NCBI GenBank assembly: GCA_029261815.1
Contig: JAJDAQ010000069.1
Span: forward strand, 12,340 to 76,339
DNA length: 64,000 nt
DNA from: Deltaproteobacteria bacterium
GTDB lineage: Bacteria > Myxococcota_A > UBA9160 > UBA6930
Reading direction: 5' to 3'
Positions 4,948 to 62,977 of this stretch are shown here, piece after piece (position 1 is the stretch's first letter; every line of letters starts with the position of its first letter). A model generated the notes under the pieces. That model had not been told where the DNA came from, made no database searches, and saw only the letters and a list, made by a program, of their open reading frames with translations. Made by a program: the position numbers and the translations under genes.

Positions 4948-6450
4948 CTAGTCTGCCGTCTCCAAGCGCTTGATCATCTTCTGGAGAGACTGCCGGGGGA
5001 TCCCGAGGCGTTCCGCCGCCCGTGTCTTCGAGCCCGTTTCTTCGAGTGCGGCGTGGATCATGGCTCGCTTCAGCTGGTCCACCGCCAGGTTGAGGTCCGT
5101 CTCATCGGGTAGCCCCGAGTCGCCTCCGCGTCCGCTGACACGCGGCGCCCGTGTCGATGTCGCGCCGCGGACCTCCTCGGAGAACATCTCGGGATGCAGC
5201 CGCACCTCGTCGCCCGCCAGCGCCACCGCCCGCTGGATCTCGTTCTCGAGTTCACGCACGTTGCCGCTCCAGACGTGGGCGGCCAACCGATCCATCGCCG
5301 AGTTGCTGAAGCCCTCGATCTTTCGGCCCATCTGTTCGCACGCCGAATCGAGGAAGTGGTGGGCCAACGCCGGAATATCCTCGACGCGATCGCGCAGGGG
5401 CGGCAGCTCGATCTCGACGACGCGGAGTCGATAGTAGAGGTCCTCTCGGAAGCGGCCCTCCTCGACGGCTTTCTTCAGATCGCGGTTGGTTGCCGCGATG
5501 ATGCGGACATCGACGCGACGCGTGTCCGACGAGCCCAGCGGCCGGATTTCGCCGTCCTGCAGCACGCGCAGCAGCCGAACCTGCATCCCGGGCTCTGTTT
5601 CTCCGACCTCGTCGAGGAAGATGCTTCCGTGATGGGCGACTTCAAACAGGCCCTTCTTGTCGGCGTGAGCGCCCGTGAACGAACCGCGCTTGTGCCCGAA
5701 GAGCTCGCTTTCGAGCAGGGTATCCGGGAGCGCGCCACAGTTCTGGGCCACGAACCGCTCTTCGCGCCGCGAGCCCGCGTAGTGCACGGCCCGCGCCACG
5801 AGATCCTTGCCCGTACCCGTCTCGCCGGTGATGAGCACCGTGGCATCGGTCTGGGCGACCTTCTCCATCACGTCGAAGACCCGCTGCATCGCGGGACTCG
5901 CACCGATGATGTTCTCGAACGAGTACTGCCCCTGCACTTCGCGACGTAGGAAGAGATTCTCGGCCCGGAGCTTCTCGTTCGCGACAGCGAGTGCGGACGC
6001 CAATTGGGTGTTCTCCGACGCCAGGCCATAGGCCTCCAGCGCGCGCTTCACGTCGAGCCGCAGCTCGTCGGGCTCCCACGGCTTCGAGATGTAGCGGTAG
6101 ATACGGCCGTCGTTGATGGCGCGAACGACTTCGTCGATGTTCGCCTGGCCCGTCAGCATCATGCGTACGGCTGCGGGGCGGACTTCAACCGCGCGCTTCA
6201 GGAATTCGACGCCGCTCATCTCGGGCATGATGTTGTCGACGATGACGAGCGCGAACTCCTCACGTTCGAGGAGTCCCAGCGCCGCATTCGGGTCGGTCGA
6301 CGTCACAACGTGATAATCGTCCTCCAGCGCGAACGCGAGGGACTCGACCACGCCCTCTTCGTCATCCACGACGAGGATCGAATAGGGCTTCGCTCCCGCC
6401 TCCCGGCGTGCGCCCTCGATGGCGTTCGAAAGGTCGGAACTCAAGCGCAT
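4948..6450 (-). CDS. sigma-54-dependent response regulator (NtrC family enhancer-binding protein)
   Basis: Receiver domain (ILVVDDEEG ... VIVDNIMPEMSG). AAA+ sigma-54 interaction domain (GETGTGKDLVARAVH, ESELFGHKRGSFTGA). C-terminal Fis-type HTH (AAERLGIPRQSLQKMIKRL). Start chosen at ATG 6450 (MRLSSDL); the longer ORF to 6609 is Arg/Pro-rich and unlikely to be coding. Confidence 0.92.
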   Translation of the reverse strand: MRLSSDLSNAIEGARREAGAKPYSILVVDDEEGVVESLAFALEDDYHVVTSTDPNAALGLLEREEFALVIVDNIMPEMSGVEFLKRAVEVRPAAVRMMLTGQANIDEVVRAINDGRIYRYISKPWEPDELRLDVKRALEAYGLASENTQLASALAVANEKLRAENLFLRREVQGQYSFENIIGASPAMQRVFDVMEKVAQTDATVLITGETGTGKDLVARAVHYAGSRREERFVAQNCGALPDTLLESELFGHKRGSFTGAHADKKGLFEVAHHGSIFLDEVGETEPGMQVRLLRVLQDGEIRPLGSSDTRRVDVRIIAATNRDLKKAVEEGRFREDLYYRLRVVEIELPPLRDRVEDIPALAHHFLDSACEQMGRKIEGFSNSAMDRLAAHVWSGNVRELENEIQRAVALAGDEVRLHPEMFSEEVRGATSTRAPRVSGRGGDSGLPDETDLNLAVDQLKRAMIHAALEETGSKTRAAERLGIPRQSLQKMIKRLETAD

Positions 6451-6639
6451 CGGCGGAGCCAGGGCACCGCGCACCTCCGAGCCGGACGGTACCCGGCGTG
6501 CGACGCGACGGCGAGGCCGCCCCGTCACACAGGGTGGGACCCGGCCTCCGGGAAGGGGACGTGGCGCAGCCGCACCACACACCACCCTGGCCCCCGGAGG
6601 CCGGTTCACCTTGCCGGCAGCTTCCCGCCGGAGCCCGCG

Positions 6640-18012: not shown

Positions 18013-18998
18013 CAGTTGTTCTGCGTCATGGCAGTGGACGCCTCCGGTTCGATGTCGGTGTATCGGAACGACTTCTCGACGGGGCCGGCGTAAGGCTGCC
18101 CATCGACTTCGACATGGGGATAGATGAAATAGTTGAGCGCTGGGCCCCGGTGGTCGGGACCGAGTCGCAGGTCGCGCCCCGTCGTGAAGTGGATGCGATC
18201 GGCGGGATGGGTCCCGTAGAAGAGTTCGCGTTTCTCCGGGTGCTTGAACGCCTCGGACGCGTCGATCGGAAACCAGCCTGTCTCCGGAAGATGGAATTCG
18301 ACCCAGCAGTGATAGCCGCCGATGCTCCCGGCGCCGCGATCCTCGGGAACGGGAAAGCCGATCTCGAACCGCGACGGGATCCCCTCGGTACGAGCCAGCG
18401 ATGTGAACATGGCGTGGAAGTCGGTGCAGTTTCCGTAGCGCTCGCTGCAGGCCCAGAACGTGTCGCCGTTTCCCCAGCCCGTTCCGACCTTCTTGTAGGT
18501 CATGTTGTCGACGACCCAGTCATAGATCGCTCGCGCCTTCTCGGGCGTCGCACCCGGCCCTGCCACCGCCCGGATTTCAGCGAGGATCGGTTGGAGAACG
18601 GGATGATCGATCACGACCCGCGCGTTCTCTCGCAGGAACGGTGCAAGGTCGCTCACAACGCCCGACGTCCGCGCGTGGACCACGTCGCGCTCGACGGTGA
18701 CCCGCAGCGCGACATCGATGGGCTGGCCGTCCGCTGGTGCCTCGACGTGATAGAAGCGGTTGCCGTAGACGTCTTCGGTCTCGATGACTCCGGGGACCGA
18801 CCCGCTGATTTCTTCACTCAGGATGCGCTGGCGTTCATCGTTTGCCGGGAGCGGAATGAAGAGGTGGACGGCAGCGCCGTCGACTGCTGCGGGAGCGACG
18901 GAGACCGTGTACTCGAACTCGAACGTGCGTGCGCCGACCGCGCTCGCTGCGAACAGACAACTCAGGAAGACCGCGGCCGAACGACCAGGGAGAGACAT
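18012..18998 (-). CDS. secreted transglutaminase-like cysteine protease-fold protein
   Basis: Signal peptide. Transglutaminase core GNCTDFHAMF ... GGYHCWVEF ... PIDASE (Cys-His-Asp). Confidence 0.85.
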   Translation of the reverse strand: MSLPGRSAAVFLSCLFAASAVGARTFEFEYTVSVAPAAVDGAAVHLFIPLPANDERQRILSEEISGSVPGVIETEDVYGNRFYHVEAPADGQPIDVALRVTVERDVVHARTSGVVSDLAPFLRENARVVIDHPVLQPILAEIRAVAGPGATPEKARAIYDWVVDNMTYKKVGTGWGNGDTFWACSERYGNCTDFHAMFTSLARTEGIPSRFEIGFPVPEDRGAGSIGGYHCWVEFHLPETGWFPIDASEAFKHPEKRELFYGTHPADRIHFTTGRDLRLGPDHRGPALNYFIYPHVEVDGQPYAGPVEKSFRYTDIEPEASTAMTQNN

Positions 18999-19085
18999 TG
19001 AAACAGGACCTCCTGCCCGCGTACGCCGGGCCTCGTCTACGCTGGGTGCCGGTCCATCCGGCAGGGCGCGCTGCGACCGAGGATC

Positions 19086-24614: not shown

Positions 24615-25985
24615 CTAACGATCAGCTTCAGGCTGCTCGTCTTCTGCGGGATCGGTTTCGACCGAGATATCCACCCGACGGCGCTGTTCCGCTCGGAAGG
24701 CCTCGATCTCGAGCTTTCGCTGTTCGATCTGGAGGCGCCGGTTCTGCCGTCGGATTCGCTCGAGTTCGGCCACCTGGGTGCGGTCGCCGAGTTCCTTGTG
24801 CTCGAATTCGAAGTCGAACTCTGCATCCCCACGCCGTCCGTCACTCGCGAGCGCAGTGACGCGCACCCGGTTCCGCCCCTCGCGGACGGGCACATAGCCG
24901 GTGAAGCTTCCGTCCGGGTTCAGCTTGACGTCGGTCGACAGGTCACCCGTTGTCAGGTTCGTAAAGATCACGTCCTCCACGTCGGCGAACGTCACACCGC
25001 CGAGCAGGGCCACGATTTCCCCGGGGCGCTGGACCGGCGTGTAGGTGCCTCGCCCGACGCGAGCCATCTCTGTCAGCGCGCGCGGAAAGCGCATGGCGAT
25101 CGATCCGAGTGCGTAGGTGTTGATCACGATGCCGGACCGGCTCGCGAGCTCGGCCGCGCGGATCGCCGCGTCGACATCTCCAGGATCCTGCTCGTTGCCC
25201 TTGCCGGTCGGGAACGTCGGGAGTCCGTCCGACAGGAACAGCATCACCTTCTCGCGATCCGGCGCCGCGCCACTGCGAGCGCCCGAGAGCGCGTTCAACT
25301 CGACCAGCGCCAGTCGAATGCCGGCCGCGTAGTTCGTGGCCCCGTTCGGACCCCGTGCGAGCATCGCGCGCAGGGTTTGTTCGACCGCGGCGTAATCATC
25401 GGTCAATGGAGTCTCGACGCGCGCGTCTTCCTGGGTGATGGACCGGCGCTCTCCCGTCACCGGGTTGACTTCGCCCGAGAATGAAACGATGCCGACCCGT
25501 ACGCGGCGCGGGTCGAGGTCGGCCAGCAGCGCACGCGCCGCCTGCGCTTGAGCGTGCAGGATGGTGTCCTGCGGGTCCGTACTTCGAACGTCCCGCGGCA
25601 CGACGCCGGGCGGCAGCTTCATCGCCGTGGCGGTGTGCGGATCGACGCCGACCAGGCCGTCGCCGTCGACATCCGATCCGCTGGCGGCGCGCGTTGAATG
25701 CGACACGTCGATCACCAGCATGACGTCGTAGAGGCGAGCGCCCGCACCGTGAGCGAGCGCGTTTCCGGTAATGCGCGCGTGGTGCAGGTTGTTCGCGACC
25801 TTGGCGCCGACGCCGGGCGACGTCACCTGTACGCCCACAGCGTCCGCTTCGACCTCGGCCAGGACCGAGACCGGGCAGACCAGCCCCACGAAGCAAACCG
25901 CGGCCCTCGCGCATGCGAGAGCCGCGGCTCGGAGCGACGGCAAGCTAGTAGGCCGTACCGGAGCCACGCTGCTGCAGGCTCTCAT
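24615..25985 (-). CDS. secreted von Willebrand factor A domain protein with C-terminal coiled coil
   Basis: MIDAS motif VIDVSHSTRAASGSD, followed by LFLSDGLPT. Signal peptide. Start uncertain: ATG 25985 overlaps the OmpA gene by 41 nt, and TTG 25943 would remove the overlap. Confidence 0.8.
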   Translation of the reverse strand: MRACSSVAPVRPTSLPSLRAAALACARAAVCFVGLVCPVSVLAEVEADAVGVQVTSPGVGAKVANNLHHARITGNALAHGAGARLYDVMLVIDVSHSTRAASGSDVDGDGLVGVDPHTATAMKLPPGVVPRDVRSTDPQDTILHAQAQAARALLADLDPRRVRVGIVSFSGEVNPVTGERRSITQEDARVETPLTDDYAAVEQTLRAMLARGPNGATNYAAGIRLALVELNALSGARSGAAPDREKVMLFLSDGLPTFPTGKGNEQDPGDVDAAIRAAELASRSGIVINTYALGSIAMRFPRALTEMARVGRGTYTPVQRPGEIVALLGGVTFADVEDVIFTNLTTGDLSTDVKLNPDGSFTGYVPVREGRNRVRVTALASDGRRGDAEFDFEFEHKELGDRTQVAELERIRRQNRRLQIEQRKLEIEAFRAEQRRRVDISVETDPAEDEQPEADR

Positions 25986-26652
25986 TGGCCTTGATCTCGA
26001 TTTCGACCCGGCGGTTGCGAGAACGACCATCCGGTGTCGCGTTCGTGTCGATCGGCTGCTGCTCACCAAGGCCGATGGCGGTCACGCGGTAATCTTCCAC
26101 TCCGCGCGCGAGCAGGAAGTTCTTCACGTTCTGCGCGCGATCCTGGGAAAGGCGCAGGTTCAGGCTCTCGTCACCCTGGCTGTCGGTGTGACCCTTCACC
26201 ACGACGCGCGACTCGGGATAGCGAACGAGCGTGTCACCGAGGCTATTCACCTTGCTGATCGCACCCGGCGAGAGTGAACTCGAGCCCGAAGCAAAGAGCA
26301 GGTCGCCGGGCAGCCCGACGATCAGCGTGTCACCGCGGCCTTCCAGGTTCGCGTCCGGGATTGCGTCCTGGATCTCGCTGGCCTGCTTCTCGAGGTAGTT
26401 GCCGATGGCACCCCCTGCGAGGCCGCCCACGACGGCACCGATCAAAGCGCCACGGCCACGCTTGTTGCTGTCGACTGCAGCACCGGCGGCGGCACCGACG
26501 ACGGTGCCGATAACGGCATCTCGGGTCGTGCGGTCCTGCATGGCGGTTTGGGCCGTCTGACAGGCGGACAGGCCCAGCATGGCCACGAGGCCGAGACCGA
26601 GGCCGAGGCCACGCATCCACCGCTGGGTGGAATCAGAATTCGGGGCATCCAT
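25945..26652 (-). CDS. OmpA-family lipoprotein with glycine-zipper region
   Basis: Start ATG 26652 (AGGAGA upstream). Lipobox LGLSAC. Gly-zipper GTVVGAAAGAAV..GAVVGGLAGGAIG. OmpA_C motif VVVKGHTDSQGDESLNLRLSQDRA ... NRRVEIEI. Confidence 0.9.
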   Translation of the reverse strand: MDAPNSDSTQRWMRGLGLGLGLVAMLGLSACQTAQTAMQDRTTRDAVIGTVVGAAAGAAVDSNKRGRGALIGAVVGGLAGGAIGNYLEKQASEIQDAIPDANLEGRGDTLIVGLPGDLLFASGSSSLSPGAISKVNSLGDTLVRYPESRVVVKGHTDSQGDESLNLRLSQDRAQNVKNFLLARGVEDYRVTAIGLGEQQPIDTNATPDGRSRNRRVEIEIKANESLQQRGSGTAY

Positions 26653-44072: not shown

Positions 44073-47000
44073 ATGATCCAGCGATCCCGCTCTGCCGCCG
44101 TTCTACTCGCCGCCACACTCCTGACGGGCCTGGCGGCCACGAGTGCATGGGCGGACGACTTCCAAAATTTCGAGAGCCCGCAGGTCCACCCGATGGACCT
44201 GGCGCCCGACACCCGGCAGCTGCTCGTCGTCAACACGGCCGACAATCGCCTCGAAGTCTTTCTCGCCACCGCCGAAGGCCTGTTCCGGAAGACCAGTGTC
44301 AGCGTCGGACTCGACCCCGTGACCGTCCGCGCACGCAGCAACCAGGAGGCGTGGGTCGTCAATCACGTCTCGGACAGCATCAGCGTGGTCGACCTCACCC
44401 GAGGAACGGTCGTCGCAACGATCGCGACGGATGACGAGCCCGCCGATGTCGTCTTCGCCGGAAGCCCCGAACGCGCCTATGTCACGTGCTCCCAGGCGAA
44501 CACGGTCCTCGTGTTCGACCCCGCGAACCTCAGTGCGCCGCCCACCCGTCTGCGCCTACAGGGAGAGGATCCTCGCGCCTTGGCGGTGAGTCCGGACGGA
44601 CTGACGGTCTACGCCGCAATCTTCGAATCTGGGAACGCGTCGACGCTTCTTGCGGGCGGCCGGGTAAACGGTGACCCCGGCAATGTCGTCGACGACCCCG
44701 CGGGCCCCTACGGCGGAGTCAATCCGCCTCCGAATGCCGGAAGCTTGTTCAATCCGCCTCTGCACCCGGCGACGGCGACGCCGAACCCGGTCGGGCTGAT
44801 CGTCAAGCAGGACGACCTCGGCGCGTGGCGGGACGACAATGGCGTGGACTGGAGCCAATACGTGTCCGGCGACCGCGCCCACCTCGGGAGCCGTGTCGCG
44901 GGCTGGGACCTCGCCGACCACGATGTCGCGGCCATCGACACGGGCACGCTCGGAGTCACGTACGAGACGCGGCTCATGAACATGGTGATGGCGATCGCGG
45001 TCAACCCGGCCACCGGACACGTCAATGCGGTGGGGACTGACGGAACGAACGAAGTGCGATTCGAACCGAACCTCCGGGGGCGATTCCTACGCGTCCGTTG
45101 GGCCGACTTCGCCAGCGGGGCGTCGCCCAACCTCGTCGATCTCAACCCGCATCTCGACTACAGCACCCCAACGACATCGGTGGCCTTGCGAGACGAATCC
45201 CTGGGTGACCCGCGTGGCGTCGCCTGGAACCAGGCCGGCGACCGCGCGTACATCACCGGGATGGGCTCCGACAATCTCATCCAGGTGGACGCCGCGGGCG
45301 CGCGAATCGGAACGCCTGTCGAAGTGGGGGCGGGCCCGACCGGTGTCGTCCTGGACGAAAGTCGCAGCCGGATCTACGTCTTGAACCGCTTCGAAGCGAC
45401 CGTATCGGTGATCGACGCATTGTCTTTCAGCGAGACGGTGCGCGCGCCGTTCTTCGATCCGACCCCTGAGGCGATCCGCCTGGGGCGACGACACTTCTAC
45501 GGAACCCACGAAACGAGTGGCCTCGGACACATCGCGTGTGCGTCCTGCCACGTCGACGGTCGGCACGACCGTCTCTCATGGGACCTTGGCGATCCCGCTG
45601 CACCGCCGCTCAACTTCAACGGCAACGTCTTCCCCGCCATGAAGGGGCCGATGCGAACGCAGATGCTCATCGACATCGTCGGAAGTCCGAGCCTCCACTT
45701 CCGCGGAGACAAGGCAGACCTGTTCGGCTTCTCGGGGGCCTTCGCGGCACTGCAAGGAATGAGTGCGCCGCTGCCGGCTGACGAGACGGCCGAGATGCAG
45801 GCCTTCCTCGCAGCGACACGCATGCCGCCGAACCCGTATCGGAACCTCGACAACTCGATGCGAAACCCGGTCCAGATCCCGGACTCGTCGGGCGACCGAT
45901 GGGGAAACCCGTTCGCCGCAGACAGCTGCACCGGCGGCGCATGCCACGATCTCGGAAACGGATTCGCTCGCGGAAGTCAGACCCTGCCACTCAGCAACCG
46001 CATGGCGGGCGCCCAGCCATCGACGGCACCGCCACTGCGCGGACTCTACGAAGTCTTCGGGCTCTACTACGACGACGCCAATGCCAGCACGGCCGGCTTC
46101 GCGCTCCACCACGATGGCTCGTTCGACCCCCGGACCGGCAGCACACAACGACGCAACCAGAACATGGCCTTCCTCCTCGCGTTCAATGGCGACCTGCCGG
46201 GCGACGCGCACGCGGCGGTCGGACGGCAGGTCACCGTTCATGGCGCTGCCGATGCGAATGAGATGTTGACGCTCAACGCCCTGCTCGCGATGGCCGACGT
46301 CGGTGACATCGACGTGACCGCCAAGGGCTGGATCGGCAATACGGCGCGCGGCTTCAGCTACCTGGGCAGCGTTTTTCAGAGCGACCATGCCTGTGATGCC
46401 TATTCGCTGGCCGACATGCTCCAGCTCGCGCAGTCCGAGGCATTCACCTTCACCGCGGTCCCTTTCGGGTCCGGAATCCGCATCGGAATCGACCGTGACC
46501 GCGACGGCTTTCTCGATGTGGCGGGACGGCTCGCACACATCGACGGGAGCCTGCCCACGATGCCGGGTGTGGCATACGCGCGAGAGGTCGCCCTCGACGA
46601 CCCTGGCCTGGAATTCCGTCAGGTCGCGGACGGCGCCCGCATGCCAGTCCTGACGGCATGGATCCACTCGTCCCACGGAACCACCTGGAACCCGTTGGCG
46701 TCCGAATTTCCTTCCGGCATTCCGGATGGAGAGAACATCGCCGTCCTCGACGGCGGCGGCTTTGCGCGCTTGCCACTCAGCGAGCGGCTGGCGGCGGACA
46801 CGACGTACACACTGACGATGGGCCTCGCGGCGTCTCCCTCGCTCCTGGGTACCGTGGAAGTGCTCGCCGGCGACGACGTCCTTGTTGCGAAGAGCGGCGG
46901 CCAGTTGCTCCAGAATCCCGGCGCGTTCGAGACGGTCTCCATCACGGTCACGCCGACCGACGTTGCCGCAGTCCCGGGAGCCGTCGGCCAACGCCTGGGC

Positions 47001-47366
47001 ATTCGAATCATTGGCGACGCTGCCGGCACTGTTTCGTTCGATGCCCTGCAGGTAACGGCCGCCCGCACTGGCGACGCGCTCGAGTCGCTCGCGACGTTCT
47101 GCGCGGCCGCGGCGGTCGCCCCGGGCTGCGACGACGGCCTCGACAACGACGGTGACGGCCGGATCGACTGGGATGGTGGCCCCGGCTCGGGGAGCCCGGA
47201 TGCAGACTGTGTCTCGGCCGCTGACGACACGGAGCAGCGGGCAGCCGCGTTCTGCGGACTGGGACCGGAGTTGGCACTCGTGCTTCCATTGCTGGGTGCT
47301 CTCCGACGGCGGTCACGCGCAAGCATCGCGTCCAACCTCCCAGAGCAAGCCACGCCCAACGCCTAA
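44073..47366 (+). CDS. large secreted protein: YVTN-type beta-propeller, di-haem cytochrome c peroxidase-like region, MopE-like Cys/Asp motif, PEP-CTERM-like tail
   Basis: Signal peptide AAVLLAATLLTGLAATSAWA. Repeated ...VNHVSDSISVVDL / AYVTCSQANTVLVFD / VYAAIFESGN. Haem motifs IACASCH (CxxCH) and SCTGGACH (CX4CH) with a downstream PPLRG...HHDGSF. CDDGLDNDGDGRIDWD. Terminal GPELALVLPLLGALRRRSR. Confidence 0.75.
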   Translation: MIQRSRSAAVLLAATLLTGLAATSAWADDFQNFESPQVHPMDLAPDTRQLLVVNTADNRLEVFLATAEGLFRKTSVSVGLDPVTVRARSNQEAWVVNHVSDSISVVDLTRGTVVATIATDDEPADVVFAGSPERAYVTCSQANTVLVFDPANLSAPPTRLRLQGEDPRALAVSPDGLTVYAAIFESGNASTLLAGGRVNGDPGNVVDDPAGPYGGVNPPPNAGSLFNPPLHPATATPNPVGLIVKQDDLGAWRDDNGVDWSQYVSGDRAHLGSRVAGWDLADHDVAAIDTGTLGVTYETRLMNMVMAIAVNPATGHVNAVGTDGTNEVRFEPNLRGRFLRVRWADFASGASPNLVDLNPHLDYSTPTTSVALRDESLGDPRGVAWNQAGDRAYITGMGSDNLIQVDAAGARIGTPVEVGAGPTGVVLDESRSRIYVLNRFEATVSVIDALSFSETVRAPFFDPTPEAIRLGRRHFYGTHETSGLGHIACASCHVDGRHDRLSWDLGDPAAPPLNFNGNVFPAMKGPMRTQMLIDIVGSPSLHFRGDKADLFGFSGAFAALQGMSAPLPADETAEMQAFLAATRMPPNPYRNLDNSMRNPVQIPDSSGDRWGNPFAADSCTGGACHDLGNGFARGSQTLPLSNRMAGAQPSTAPPLRGLYEVFGLYYDDANASTAGFALHHDGSFDPRTGSTQRRNQNMAFLLAFNGDLPGDAHAAVGRQVTVHGAADANEMLTLNALLAMADVGDIDVTAKGWIGNTARGFSYLGSVFQSDHACDAYSLADMLQLAQSEAFTFTAVPFGSGIRIGIDRDRDGFLDVAGRLAHIDGSLPTMPGVAYAREVALDDPGLEFRQVADGARMPVLTAWIHSSHGTTWNPLASEFPSGIPDGENIAVLDGGGFARLPLSERLAADTTYTLTMGLAASPSLLGTVEVLAGDDVLVAKSGGQLLQNPGAFETVSITVTPTDVAAVPGAVGQRLGIRIIGDAAGTVSFDALQVTAARTGDALESLATFCAAAAVAPGCDDGLDNDGDGRIDWDGGPGSGSPDADCVSAADDTEQRAAAFCGLGPELALVLPLLGALRRRSRASIASNLPEQATPNA

Positions 47367-60017: not shown

Positions 60018-60202
60018 CGGGCCTCCCGGGCTTCGCGCATGGTGCGCCGGATCGGCTGCAATGAAAAGTGGGAAAACCGATTCCTGCTTTTGCCGGGTCC
60101 GCAAGGAATTGCGAGAGGCAACCCGCGCGGCCAAGCGCGCGTTCTCGCAGGTATCTCAGCCGGAATCCGCGGGCTGGCACGATCCCTGCTTTACCGGAGC
60201 CC

Positions 60203-60916
60203 ATGACGCACCAACTCCGCCTCCCCATGAACTCCGGAAGCCGCTGGCTCAGATCCGCCGGGCTCGCCTTCGCGATGCTCCTCTTCGCCGCGTCGGCTTC
60301 CGCCACCACCTTTACCGTCCACGGATTCGAGCTGGGCGAGCGGATCACCGTATTCGGCAGCCGCAGCGTGAACACGGCGCTCCTCGATGTATCACTCGAC
60401 GCCATGCGCGGGGAGTCGTTCTGTGTCGACCTCGACACCTACATCTCGACCTCGGCCTACGACGTGCGCGCGGTCCTCGACCCGTTCGTGGACCCGGCTC
60501 CGGCAGACGAGGCGCCGCGCGACCTCGCCTGGGCCGGCTTCGTCATGAATAACTTCGGCTTCGATGTGGGCCAACTCGTCAGCGCCACGGTCACGCGCGT
60601 CCAGGCGATCACGGGCGTTCAAGCCGCCATCTGGGAGGGCATCTACGGGGGCAACGTCGTCGACGACAGCAGCCTTTCCGCGGGCGCCCAGGAGATCTTC
60701 TTCCGGATCCTGAACGCCGGCGGCGGGTGGATCGGTGGCGGGGCCGATGGCGGCGAGCCCGGCGGCGGCTTCGCTCTGGAAGGTCCGGCCGTTGTGGTCG
60801 ACCTGGCCAACAACCAGGATCAGGTCTTCACCAAGCCGATCCCGGAACCGAGCGCCGCGCTGGTGTTCGGCATCGGTGCCTTGCTGGTCGGTGCTACCCG
60901 GCGGACGCGCGCCTAG
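60203..60916 (+). CDS. PEP-CTERM-tailed surface protein with thioester-domain (TQXA-type) signature
   Basis: Signal peptide LAFAMLLFAASASA. SFCVDLD (Cys74, codon 60422..60424) and GVQAAIW (Gln140, codon 60620..60622). C-terminal PIPEPSAALVFGIGALLVGATRRTRA. Confidence 0.75.
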   Translation: MTHQLRLPMNSGSRWLRSAGLAFAMLLFAASASATTFTVHGFELGERITVFGSRSVNTALLDVSLDAMRGESFCVDLDTYISTSAYDVRAVLDPFVDPAPADEAPRDLAWAGFVMNNFGFDVGQLVSATVTRVQAITGVQAAIWEGIYGGNVVDDSSLSAGAQEIFFRILNAGGGWIGGGADGGEPGGGFALEGPAVVVDLANNQDQVFTKPIPEPSAALVFGIGALLVGATRRTRA

Positions 60917-62138: not shown

Positions 62139-62876
62139 CTAGCGCTGCCGTCGGAGCTCGCGGAAGCCGGCCGTACACGCAGCCGTGAGCAGGAGCAGCG
62201 CTGCCACGCGGGGCTCGGGAGTGACGATATAGGAAGAGACGTCGCCCGAAACGCGTGCGATCGAGAAGTTCGGCGGACCACTCGGCGATGACACCGAGCA
62301 CGTGAACTGAACGATGGGGAAGGCGCTCAAGCTCGTCGGCGTGAAGAATGCCACCGATGTGAGGGTCTGGGCCGACGGGTCGACGAAGCTCAGTGAGCAA
62401 GCCACGGCGGCGGATCCGATCACAGGAGCCGGCACGCTGGTGGCGTACGGAATCTGCCAGAAGTCGATGGGCCCATTCGGGTCGGGAAAGTCCAAGGGAT
62501 TCAGGTTGTTCTGAATCTGGATGAGCGGCAGCGGGAAGGTGCCCCCGGCCGGCTGGAGAACGAGATCACCGAGGCTCCCCGTAAGGCGGAGCGTCTCTGG
62601 GCCGAGCACACCAATGGGCAACCCGAAGATCGGCCCAATATCGCCAGGCCACACGTAGGTCCCGCCTGCGGCAAAGTCCAAGCCCGCGAGCTGCCCCACG
62701 AAGAACGCCGTTGGATCGTACTCGGCACTTCCAGAGAAAGGTGTTCCGAGCCCGGGCAGAAGGCCCTGCGGGTCGTTCGCGGTGTCGATGACGCCGGAGA
62801 ACTCCACCCGAAGGGCATGGGCCGGAAGAGCGAGCAGGGAGATCAACAGGAGCGGAAACAGCAGGCGGGCGCGCAT
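62139..62876 (-). CDS. PEP-CTERM-tailed secreted hypothetical protein
   Basis: Start ATG 62876. Signal peptide MRARLLFPLLLISLLALPAHA. C-terminus IVTPEPRVAALLLLTAACTAGFRELRRQR. Confidence 0.7.
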   Translation of the reverse strand: MRARLLFPLLLISLLALPAHALRVEFSGVIDTANDPQGLLPGLGTPFSGSAEYDPTAFFVGQLAGLDFAAGGTYVWPGDIGPIFGLPIGVLGPETLRLTGSLGDLVLQPAGGTFPLPLIQIQNNLNPLDFPDPNGPIDFWQIPYATSVPAPVIGSAAVACSLSFVDPSAQTLTSVAFFTPTSLSAFPIVQFTCSVSSPSGPPNFSIARVSGDVSSYIVTPEPRVAALLLLTAACTAGFRELRRQR

Positions 62877-62977
62877 TCGGACCTCGGCCCGTTCCCAGAC
62901 CTTCAGGGTCCCACGGATCGACCGACGGGGCAACGGCGCCTGTTATTCTATGTGTGTCCCGAAACTGGAGGTCCGCC

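Follow-up and report, generated by a model that had tools for sequence, protein, structure and literature searches.

A 64-kb stretch of contig JAJDAQ010000069.1 (GenBank assembly GCA_029261815.1, Deltaproteobacteria bacterium), referred to below as the window, carries at positions 60203 to 60916 a complete gene for a small, predicted secreted protein that ends in a PEP-CTERM tail. Family profiles and structure models indicate that this protein is a genuine and very divergent thioester domain (TED) of Class I type, without a beta-sandwich insertion, and that the partner of its only cysteine, Cys74, is most likely Gln205. The features of the locus are as follows.

60175..60190, plus strand: sigma-54 promoter of the -24/-12 type, TGGCACGATCCCTGCT, with the -12 GC at 60188-60189 and the ATG 14 nt later
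60203..60916, plus strand: complete coding sequence, 237 codons plus TAG (ATG at 60203, TAG at 60914-60916)
60203..60304, plus strand: predicted Sec signal peptide (residues 1-34), based on the sequence and on the aligned N-termini of homologues
60305..60835, plus strand: thioester domain, Class I-like and minimal, residues 35-211 (AlphaFold, Foldseek, the Pfam TED model and profile A2)
60416..60430, plus strand: SFCVD, the motif [YFL]C-hydrophobic-hydrophilic, with Cys74 (60422-60424) as predicted thioester thiol
60608..60634, plus strand: ITGVQAAIW, which corresponds to the helper motif TQxxΦW but has Val in place of Thr; Gln140 at 60620-60622, in helix 132-147
60728..60778, plus strand: lineage-specific Gly-rich insertion, residues 176-192, a loop from the last helix to the final beta-hairpin
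60809..60829, plus strand: NNQDQVF, with Gln205 (60815-60817) as predicted acyl donor and Gln207 (60821-60823) as a less likely alternative
60836..60913, plus strand: PEP-CTERM sorting signal, residues 212-237, PIPEPSAALVFGIGALLVGATRRTRA up to the stop codon, with PEP at 214-216, a hydrophobic helix and RRTR

Translation of the open reading frame (ORF) bears out the two segments on which a preliminary description of this DNA had drawn, namely GESFCVDLDTY with Cys74 and TGVQAAIWEGIYGG with Gln140, exactly 66 residues further on, and also the replacement of Thr by Val before that glutamine. The GC content at third codon positions (GC3) of the ORF is 0.83, in a window of 65.7% GC. The predicted signal peptide has a basic n-region and a hydrophobic core (residues 12-29 are helical, at low confidence, in the AlphaFold model), with cleavage expected between ASA and TT after residue 34 and no lipobox Cys. 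The mature length of about 200 residues given earlier holds if only the signal peptide is removed, which would leave 203 residues; if the tail were also cut at the PEP motif, about 180 would remain. In the public gene call (P0001) the identical protein has 229 residues and starts at Met9, at 60227 instead of 60203. The conserved spacing between promoter and ATG and the N-termini of the homologues support the ATG at 60203 as the true start.

Among 5.8 billion proteins, 111 homologues were found at E <= 1e-3, nearly all of 200-235 amino acids and all with the same architecture; the ones with a taxonomic name stem from metagenome genomes of Myxococcota or 'Deltaproteobacteria'. Twenty-two full-length loci were located in GTDB species genomes, all of them uncultured and mostly labelled Myxococcota or Deltaproteobacteria. 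Three of these loci bear the label Spirochaetaceae, and one of the three has 'MYXO' within its isolate name. Three alignments were used: A1, with 49 homologues from Myxococcota metagenome genomes; A2, restricted to the domain, without signal peptide or tail; and A3, with 52 sequences of the wider family, down to 20% identity. The residues invariant in A1 are C74, D76, I136, T137, Q140, A141, A142, W144 and Y148 within the body of the domain, and Q205, Q207, P214, E215 and P216 towards the C-terminus. In A3 only C74, W144 and P214 are invariant; conservation is 90% or more at D76, A111, Q140, Q205, E215 and P216, but not at Q207.

The predicted fold was that of a TED. AlphaFold2 modelled the full-length protein with A1 at a predicted local distance difference test score (pLDDT) of 86.5 and a predicted template modelling score (pTM) of 0.76, and the trimmed domain with A2 at 89.1 and 0.87. 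Both models consist of a beta-barrel subdomain (predicted strands 36-50, 54-65, 68-74, 85-92, 196-201 and 207-210) and a helical subdomain (predicted helices 108-119, 122-125, 132-147 and 160-177). When the full-length model was compared with the PDB using Foldseek, the top 13 matches were all TEDs, among them SfbI (5a0l, E = 9.5e-5), Cpa (4c0z and 2xi9/2xic) and CpTIE (5a0g). The top 11 matches of the trimmed model were likewise all TEDs, with query TM-scores of 0.50-0.53. Probabilities reached 1.00, 5a0d was also among the top TED structures, and the first match of another kind appeared at E = 0.25 for the full-length model and E = 1.6 for the trimmed domain. Identity to the proven TEDs in these matches was 10-14%. 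Conservation and fold together rule out a chance pairing of the two motifs.

Profile searches of the family gave the same picture. The Pfam TED model (PF08341) was matched at E <= 1 by 47 of the 49 homologues, with a best E-value of 2.4e-6, and two relatives, P0107 and P0166, lie above the gathering cut-offs both of PF08341 (28.3 and 27.1 bits against 22) and of the PEP-CTERM model PF07589. Profile A2 found only 70 matches at E <= 1e-3 among 1.84 billion representative proteins. Most of these are proteins of 200-265 amino acids with PEP-CTERM-type tails, and the profile also retrieved Gram-positive TED proteins, with a best E-value of 3e-7. Eight matches were longer or had no tail (P0132, P0136, P0139, P0140, P0153, P0154, P0158 and P0173); they were found at E-values of 3e-7 to 7.6e-4 and score 49-66 bits against PF08341. 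Three of the eight also have SpaA stalk domains, and the sequences show LPXTG-like tails.

A Gly-rich stretch had been described as a linker in front of the tail. It covers residues 172-194 and lies inside the domain, not between domain and tail. The alignment columns of its core, residues 176-192, are occupied in fewer than 30% of the homologues, and the pLDDT there is 51-58. In Class II TEDs a beta-sandwich is inserted where the helical subdomain connects to the final strands (Miller 2018), and the Gly-rich insertion, going by this description, may occupy a corresponding position.

Three motifs mark TEDs (Walden 2015; Miller 2018): [YFL]CΦζ, where Φ is hydrophobic and ζ hydrophilic, which holds the bonding Cys; a weak ΦQζΦΦ, which holds the bonding Gln; and the alpha-helical TQxxΦW, formerly written TQxA(I/V)W, which occurs in most but not all TEDs. 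The first two lie in beta-strands, the bonding Gln being on the C-terminal strand and, in Class I, about 130-150 residues past the Cys. In the solved thioesters these residues are Cys109 and Gln261 (SfbI), Cys94 and Gln247 (PnTIE), and Cys138 and Gln267 (CpTIE). The Gln and Trp of TQxxΦW adjoin the bond and, in most solved TEDs, form hydrogen bonds with the backbone of the Cys; mutagenesis of Cpa found both to be dispensable for bond formation (Walden 2015; Miller 2018).

All three motifs can be recognized here. Cys74 is the sole cysteine of the protein, stands at the end of predicted strand 68-74 in the first motif, and is invariant in A1, A2 and A3. Gln140 would be the helper glutamine of TQxxΦW, since it lies in helix 132-147; this Gln and the Trp are conserved in the family, and the Thr position is taken by Val, Ile or Leu. 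For the bonding glutamine, several observations point to Gln205. It follows Cys74 by 131 residues, and distant members of A3 read QDL, QDF, QDH or QSQ at this place, which fits Q-ζ-Φ-Φ counted from Gln205; the residue that precedes it is non-hydrophobic, unlike that of ΦQζΦΦ. A whole-domain alignment of A3 with the SfbI TED (5a0l_A) placed C74 on chain residue 49, Q140 on the Q of LVTQNAIW and Q205 on chain residue 201, in 'YQNLL'. The chain numbering runs 60 behind that of SfbI, residue 49 being Cys109; residue 201 is therefore Gln261, the proven partner in SfbI. This match is weak (E = 0.5) and served to define residue equivalence, not to prove homology; the equivalence of Gln205 and Gln261 rests on it together with the conservation.

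The same arrangement was found in the short tailed relatives, 155 of 158 of which have Q[DSENGK]xΦ at 6-20 residues (median 9) ahead of the sorting motif; in 133 of these 155 there is exactly one Cys outside the signal peptide. In the window protein, Gln205 stands nine residues from Pro214 of the PEP motif. On this evidence Gln205, and not Gln140, is most likely the thioester partner of Cys74.

The tail had been called a textbook PEP-CTERM signal, and its layout agrees: PIPEPSAALVFGIGALLVGATRRTRA at residues 212-237 with P214, E215 and P216 invariant in A1, residues 216-236 helical in the AlphaFold model, and the basic cluster RRTR at the extreme C-terminus. The score itself falls below the curated cut-offs (see below). 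PF07589 was matched at E <= 1 by all 49 homologues, and TIGR02595 at E <= 0.01 by 30 of the 52 wide-family members. In more distant relatives the tag itself changes. A Verrucomicrobiota protein found on 52 contigs carries a VPDSG-CTERM tag on the same small domain with its Cys, QxxΦW and Gln, and the VPLPA-CTERM model was matched by four alignment members. Such other exosortase-type tags, some of them VPLPA-like, were seen among P0176, P0178, P0179, P0157 (VPDGG...), P0163 and P0167 (VPIPAALFF...), and P0146 is an Armatimonadota member of the domain family.

Further PEP-CTERM tails are encoded in the same metagenome genomes as the homologues (loci L023-L032). In the window, a second ORF with such a tail (VTPEPRVAALLLLTAACTAGFRELRRQR) and a signal-peptide-like N-terminus lies 1.2 kb away at 62139-62933 on the minus strand. 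It had no Pfam or NCBIfam match and no sigma-54 motif upstream, and it overlaps, at its 3' end, the long version of an aminotransferase ORF. A 1097-residue secreted protein with a beta-propeller region and an HpiC1-like domain is encoded at 44073-47366 on the plus strand; it ends in a hydrophobic stretch and RRRSR (LGPELALVLPLLGALRRRSRAS...), which may be a variant sorting signal.

The promoter of the gene was identified from a sigma-54 motif. TGGCACGATCCCTGCT is the sole exact match to TGGCACN5YTGCW in the window, where 0.09 would be expected, and also the best-scoring site there. A motif of the form GGCA[CT][GA]N4xTGC[AT] was found ahead of the homologous gene in 20 of the 22 loci, against 23 matches in all of the 991 kb searched. 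In 17 of those loci the ATG comes 12-16 nt after the -12 GC, which implies a nearly leaderless, sigma-54-dependent transcript with a predicted leader of 1-3 nt or none. Sigma-54 motifs precede most proteobacterial PEP-CTERM genes, and the distance from the end of the 17-nt motif to the start codon averages 71 nt there, with a range of 23-221 (Haft 2006). The regulation found here thus matches the known pattern of PEP-CTERM genes, pepA included.

An NtrC-family, sigma-54-dependent response regulator encoded at 4951-6609 on the minus strand shows that the organism uses sigma-54. It was considered as PrsR and rejected, having scored 366.8 bits against the TIGR02915 cut-off of 502.6, with AtoC and NtrC similar; no PrsK, PrsR or PrsT gene lies near the TED gene. 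A k-mer search among 18 promoters for a shared upstream activator motif gave nothing convincing, and a scan for terminators downstream of the gene found matches no more often than chance.

From the homology, the fold, the conserved motifs and the promoter motif we infer a bond, a route of processing, a location and a kind of target. The reading that we favour, with a rough probability of 0.65, is that the gene encodes a secreted, stalk-less, single-domain TED of Class I type that is fused directly to a PEP-CTERM signal, forms a thioester between Cys74 and Gln205, is sorted by an exosortase and acylates a target. Transcription would begin about 2 nt ahead of the ATG, from the sigma-54 promoter, whose activity is presumed from its motif. 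The precursor would be exported via Sec and cut after Ala34, with the C-terminal helix and basic cluster retaining it in the inner membrane. During folding, Cys74 would attack the side-chain amide of Gln205, ammonia would leave, and a buried Cys-Gln thioester would form. Gln140 and Trp144, on helix alpha-2, would pack on this bond and hydrogen-bond to the Cys backbone, remaining outside the bond itself.

An exosortase encoded elsewhere would then cut at or near the PEP motif (214-216) and transfer the protein to an acceptor bound for the surface or the exopolysaccharide. In the extracellular space, the thioester would be attacked by a nucleophile of the target, so that the target would become acylated on Gln205, about nine residues from the anchored C-terminus. 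An amine plays the part of this nucleophile in SfbI and fibrinogen, the only case characterized. As a result, the cell or its matrix would be covalently, and perhaps reversibly, tethered to the target. Candidates for the target are components of the matrix and, in flocs or biofilms, the surfaces of other cells.

Several observations weigh against this reading. We know of no precedent for a thioester in any PEP-CTERM protein. The window protein on its own scored 12.4 bits against PF08341 (E = 0.22, residues 128-151), below the gathering threshold of 22, and did not match TIGR03934. A search with these two models had been proposed in the preliminary description as a check, with a missing hit to speak against a TED; for the single protein that outcome was indeed obtained, but 47 of 49 homologues match, and taken literally the missing hit would wrongly have led to the rejection of a real TED. 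TM-scores to the PDB TEDs are only about 0.5, with root-mean-square deviations of 5-8 Å. Sequence-profile matches to TEDs in the PDB were non-significant: A3 reached the SfbI TED at E = 0.5, and searches with the single protein or the close-family profile yielded nothing beyond chance matches among PDB sequences. In both models the last DSSP strand starts at Gln207, two residues past Gln205. The tail of the window protein scored 15.1 bits against PF07589 (cut-off 20.7) and 13.6 against TIGR02595 (cut-off 16). Pfam scans of 30 of the larger ORFs of the window found no exosortase or exopolysaccharide-export gene, about 20 other large ORFs lying outside these scans. The gene neighbourhood gave no functional hint.

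The strongest of the competing explanations is that the protein has the fold and serves at the surface or in the matrix without any thioester, as a non-covalent adhesin or a structural component in which the cysteine is a free thiol, forms an intermolecular disulfide or binds a metal. The strong divergence from proven TEDs (10-14% identity) and the change of Thr to Val are compatible with such a role, oxidation of thiols in the periplasm could compete with bond formation, and the thioester chemistry is in this case a prediction without diderm or PEP-CTERM precedent. Nevertheless, the three TED motifs, with the single Cys and the C-terminal Gln among their residues, are conserved together down to 20% identity, a pattern that would be difficult to account for unless selection acted on the bond itself. 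We consider a protein without the thioester unlikely.

Two further explanations, both improbable in our estimate, accept most of the favoured reading and alter one part of it. In the first, fold and sorting are the same, and Cys74 pairs with Gln207. This residue is invariant in the close family and opens the last strand in both models, with Gln205 just ahead of that strand. In the wider family, however, position 207 is occupied by Leu, Phe, His, Met, Tyr or Val, whereas Gln205 is at least 90% conserved; the SfbI alignment puts Leu on Gln207 and Gln261 on Gln205, and position 207 fits a hydrophobic slot of ΦQζΦΦ. In the second, the tail is a plain inner-membrane anchor that no exosortase processes, and the domain stays in the periplasm. 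The scanned part of the window, which contained no exosortase, and the sub-threshold tail scores would agree with an anchor of this kind. Against it stands the tail of every homologue, in which a helix and, at the very end of the protein, a basic cluster come after an invariant PEP, as do the relatives with other exosortase-type tags, VPDSG-CTERM and VPLPA-CTERM, at the same place. Sigma-54 regulation is moreover typical of PEP-CTERM genes, and PEP-CTERM co-occurs with EpsH (Haft 2006).

A thioester between Cys74 and Gln140, the partner named in the preliminary description, is very improbable: Gln140 is invariant and its equivalent adjoins the thioester in solved TEDs, so that it should lie near Cys74, but the published bonds use a Gln of the C-terminal strand, the Gln and Trp of this motif are dispensable in Cpa, Gln140 is helical and aligns with the TQ of SfbI rather than with Gln261, and a spacing of 66 matches no known TED. 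The motif roles described by Walden 2015 and Miller 2018 therefore move the partner to Gln205. A check of the distance between Cys74 and Gln140 would be misleading, because a helper Gln is expected close to the Cys in any case. The correction also matters in practice, as mutants based on Gln140 would yield misleading negatives.

The neighbours of the gene in the window encode GroES and GroEL (read from their translations), a divergent GNAT acetyltransferase, a convergent aminotransferase and Ogt, and the genes that flank the TED gene directly are on the opposite strand. None of these neighbours was found flanking the homologues. In one subclade (loci L002 and L006-L018), genes for an APH-family phosphotransferase, an SDR, a sulfotransferase and a DUF1214/DUF1254 protein lie within about 6 kb upstream, and genes for an alpha/beta hydrolase and an amidohydrolase lie downstream; no part of this block adjoins the gene in the window. 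The block was considered as an operon and set aside, as it looks like the shared ancestry of those genomes. Since the window's neighbours are not shared by the homologues and the neighbourhood of the subclade is unrelated, the gene is a stand-alone unit. Elsewhere in the window, a transglutaminase-like protein (18015-19085, minus strand) and a VWA-domain protein (24618-26081, minus strand) could belong to surface or matrix biology; no link to the TED gene was found.

A family of PEP-CTERM proteins involved in floc formation was also compared. The floc_PepA model (NF033554) gave the window protein 22.9 bits over residues 136-236, a sub-threshold match that reaches the TQxxΦW motif, and was matched weakly by 27 of the 52 members of the wide family, with a best score of 36 bits. 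Membership of PepA was rejected, the equivalog cut-off being 80 bits, and two further homology searches returned no protein named PepA. For PepA itself, no TED is on record. In P0143, P0151, P0164 and P0166, sub-threshold matches to floc_PepA or NF038129 reach the helical region of the TED, and that of P0166 covers the whole NF038129 model. The PepA and NF038129 families may, judging from these profile overlaps, be divergent relatives of the same domain.

A wider reading would make single-domain TEDs without a stalk a widespread exosortase cargo of diderm bacteria, crosslinking cells covalently, and perhaps reversibly, to the exopolysaccharide matrix or to their neighbours, possibly with PepA and NF038129 as divergent members. 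We offer it tentatively and regard it as doubtful. It draws on the PEP-CTERM tags in Myxococcota and Armatimonadota, the VPDSG-CTERM tag in Verrucomicrobiota and the matches to the VPLPA-CTERM model. If true, it would supply a chemical mechanism for the cohesion of flocs and biofilms that depends on PEP-CTERM proteins.

The combination of a TED with exosortase sorting had been put forward as unusual, and this stands for the published literature but not for sequence annotation. Automated annotation already gives some relatives both labels, most members being unnamed or 'hypothetical'. Three proteins named 'thioester domain-containing protein' by NCBI (P0050, P0074 and P0075) share architecture and motifs with the window protein at 47-49% identity, and a distant member labelled 'PEP-CTERM motif/Thioester domain' by JGI (P0166) has them as well. 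Our literature searches found no paper that pairs 'thioester domain' with 'PEP-CTERM' and no published or experimental account of the annotated relatives. For 'thioester' with 'exosortase', the two were unconnected in the paper examined, and the other titles point to unrelated topics. The TED literature up to 2026 describes the domain as Gram-positive, from Firmicutes and Actinobacteria.

To our knowledge, no bacterial adhesin modules other than TEDs form covalent bonds with their targets, and the field still regards them as a Gram-positive invention tied to sortase. A conserved TED family in diderms would extend the reach of covalent adhesion in both taxonomy and mechanism. PEP-CTERM proteins form a large group, and what most of them do biochemically is unclear; the chemistry proposed here would give one group of them a concrete, testable function.

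Compared with known systems, the protein combines parts of two. With the PEP-CTERM/EpsH-XrtA system (Haft 2006) it shares the signal peptide and tail, the small single-gene unit and the -24/-12 promoter of sigma-54, from which the start codon is 12-16 nt away here, against a minimum of 23 nt and an average of 71 nt in Proteobacteria. With the Gram-positive Class I TEDs of SfbI (5a0l), Cpa (4c0z) and CpTIE (5a0g), all covered by PF08341, it shares the fold of a beta-barrel and a helical bundle and the three motifs in the same order and secondary-structure context. The predicted spacing from Cys to Gln, 131 residues, is close to the 129 of CpTIE, and in SfbI, too, about nine residues separate the bonding Gln from the C-terminal end of the domain. 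It differs from these TEDs in its diderm host, known from Myxococcota metagenome genomes, in the replacement of LPXTG and sortase by PEP-CTERM and exosortase, in the change of Thr to Val, in the Gly-rich insertion and in chemistry that is predicted only; it also has no isopeptide, ester or SpaA stalk. TIE proteins, for example, present their TED on an isopeptide or ester stalk with an LPXTG anchor, and the window protein has neither. Its whole mature form would correspond to one TED of about 175 residues joined to an exosortase tag, a very small scaffold for structural and protein-engineering work.

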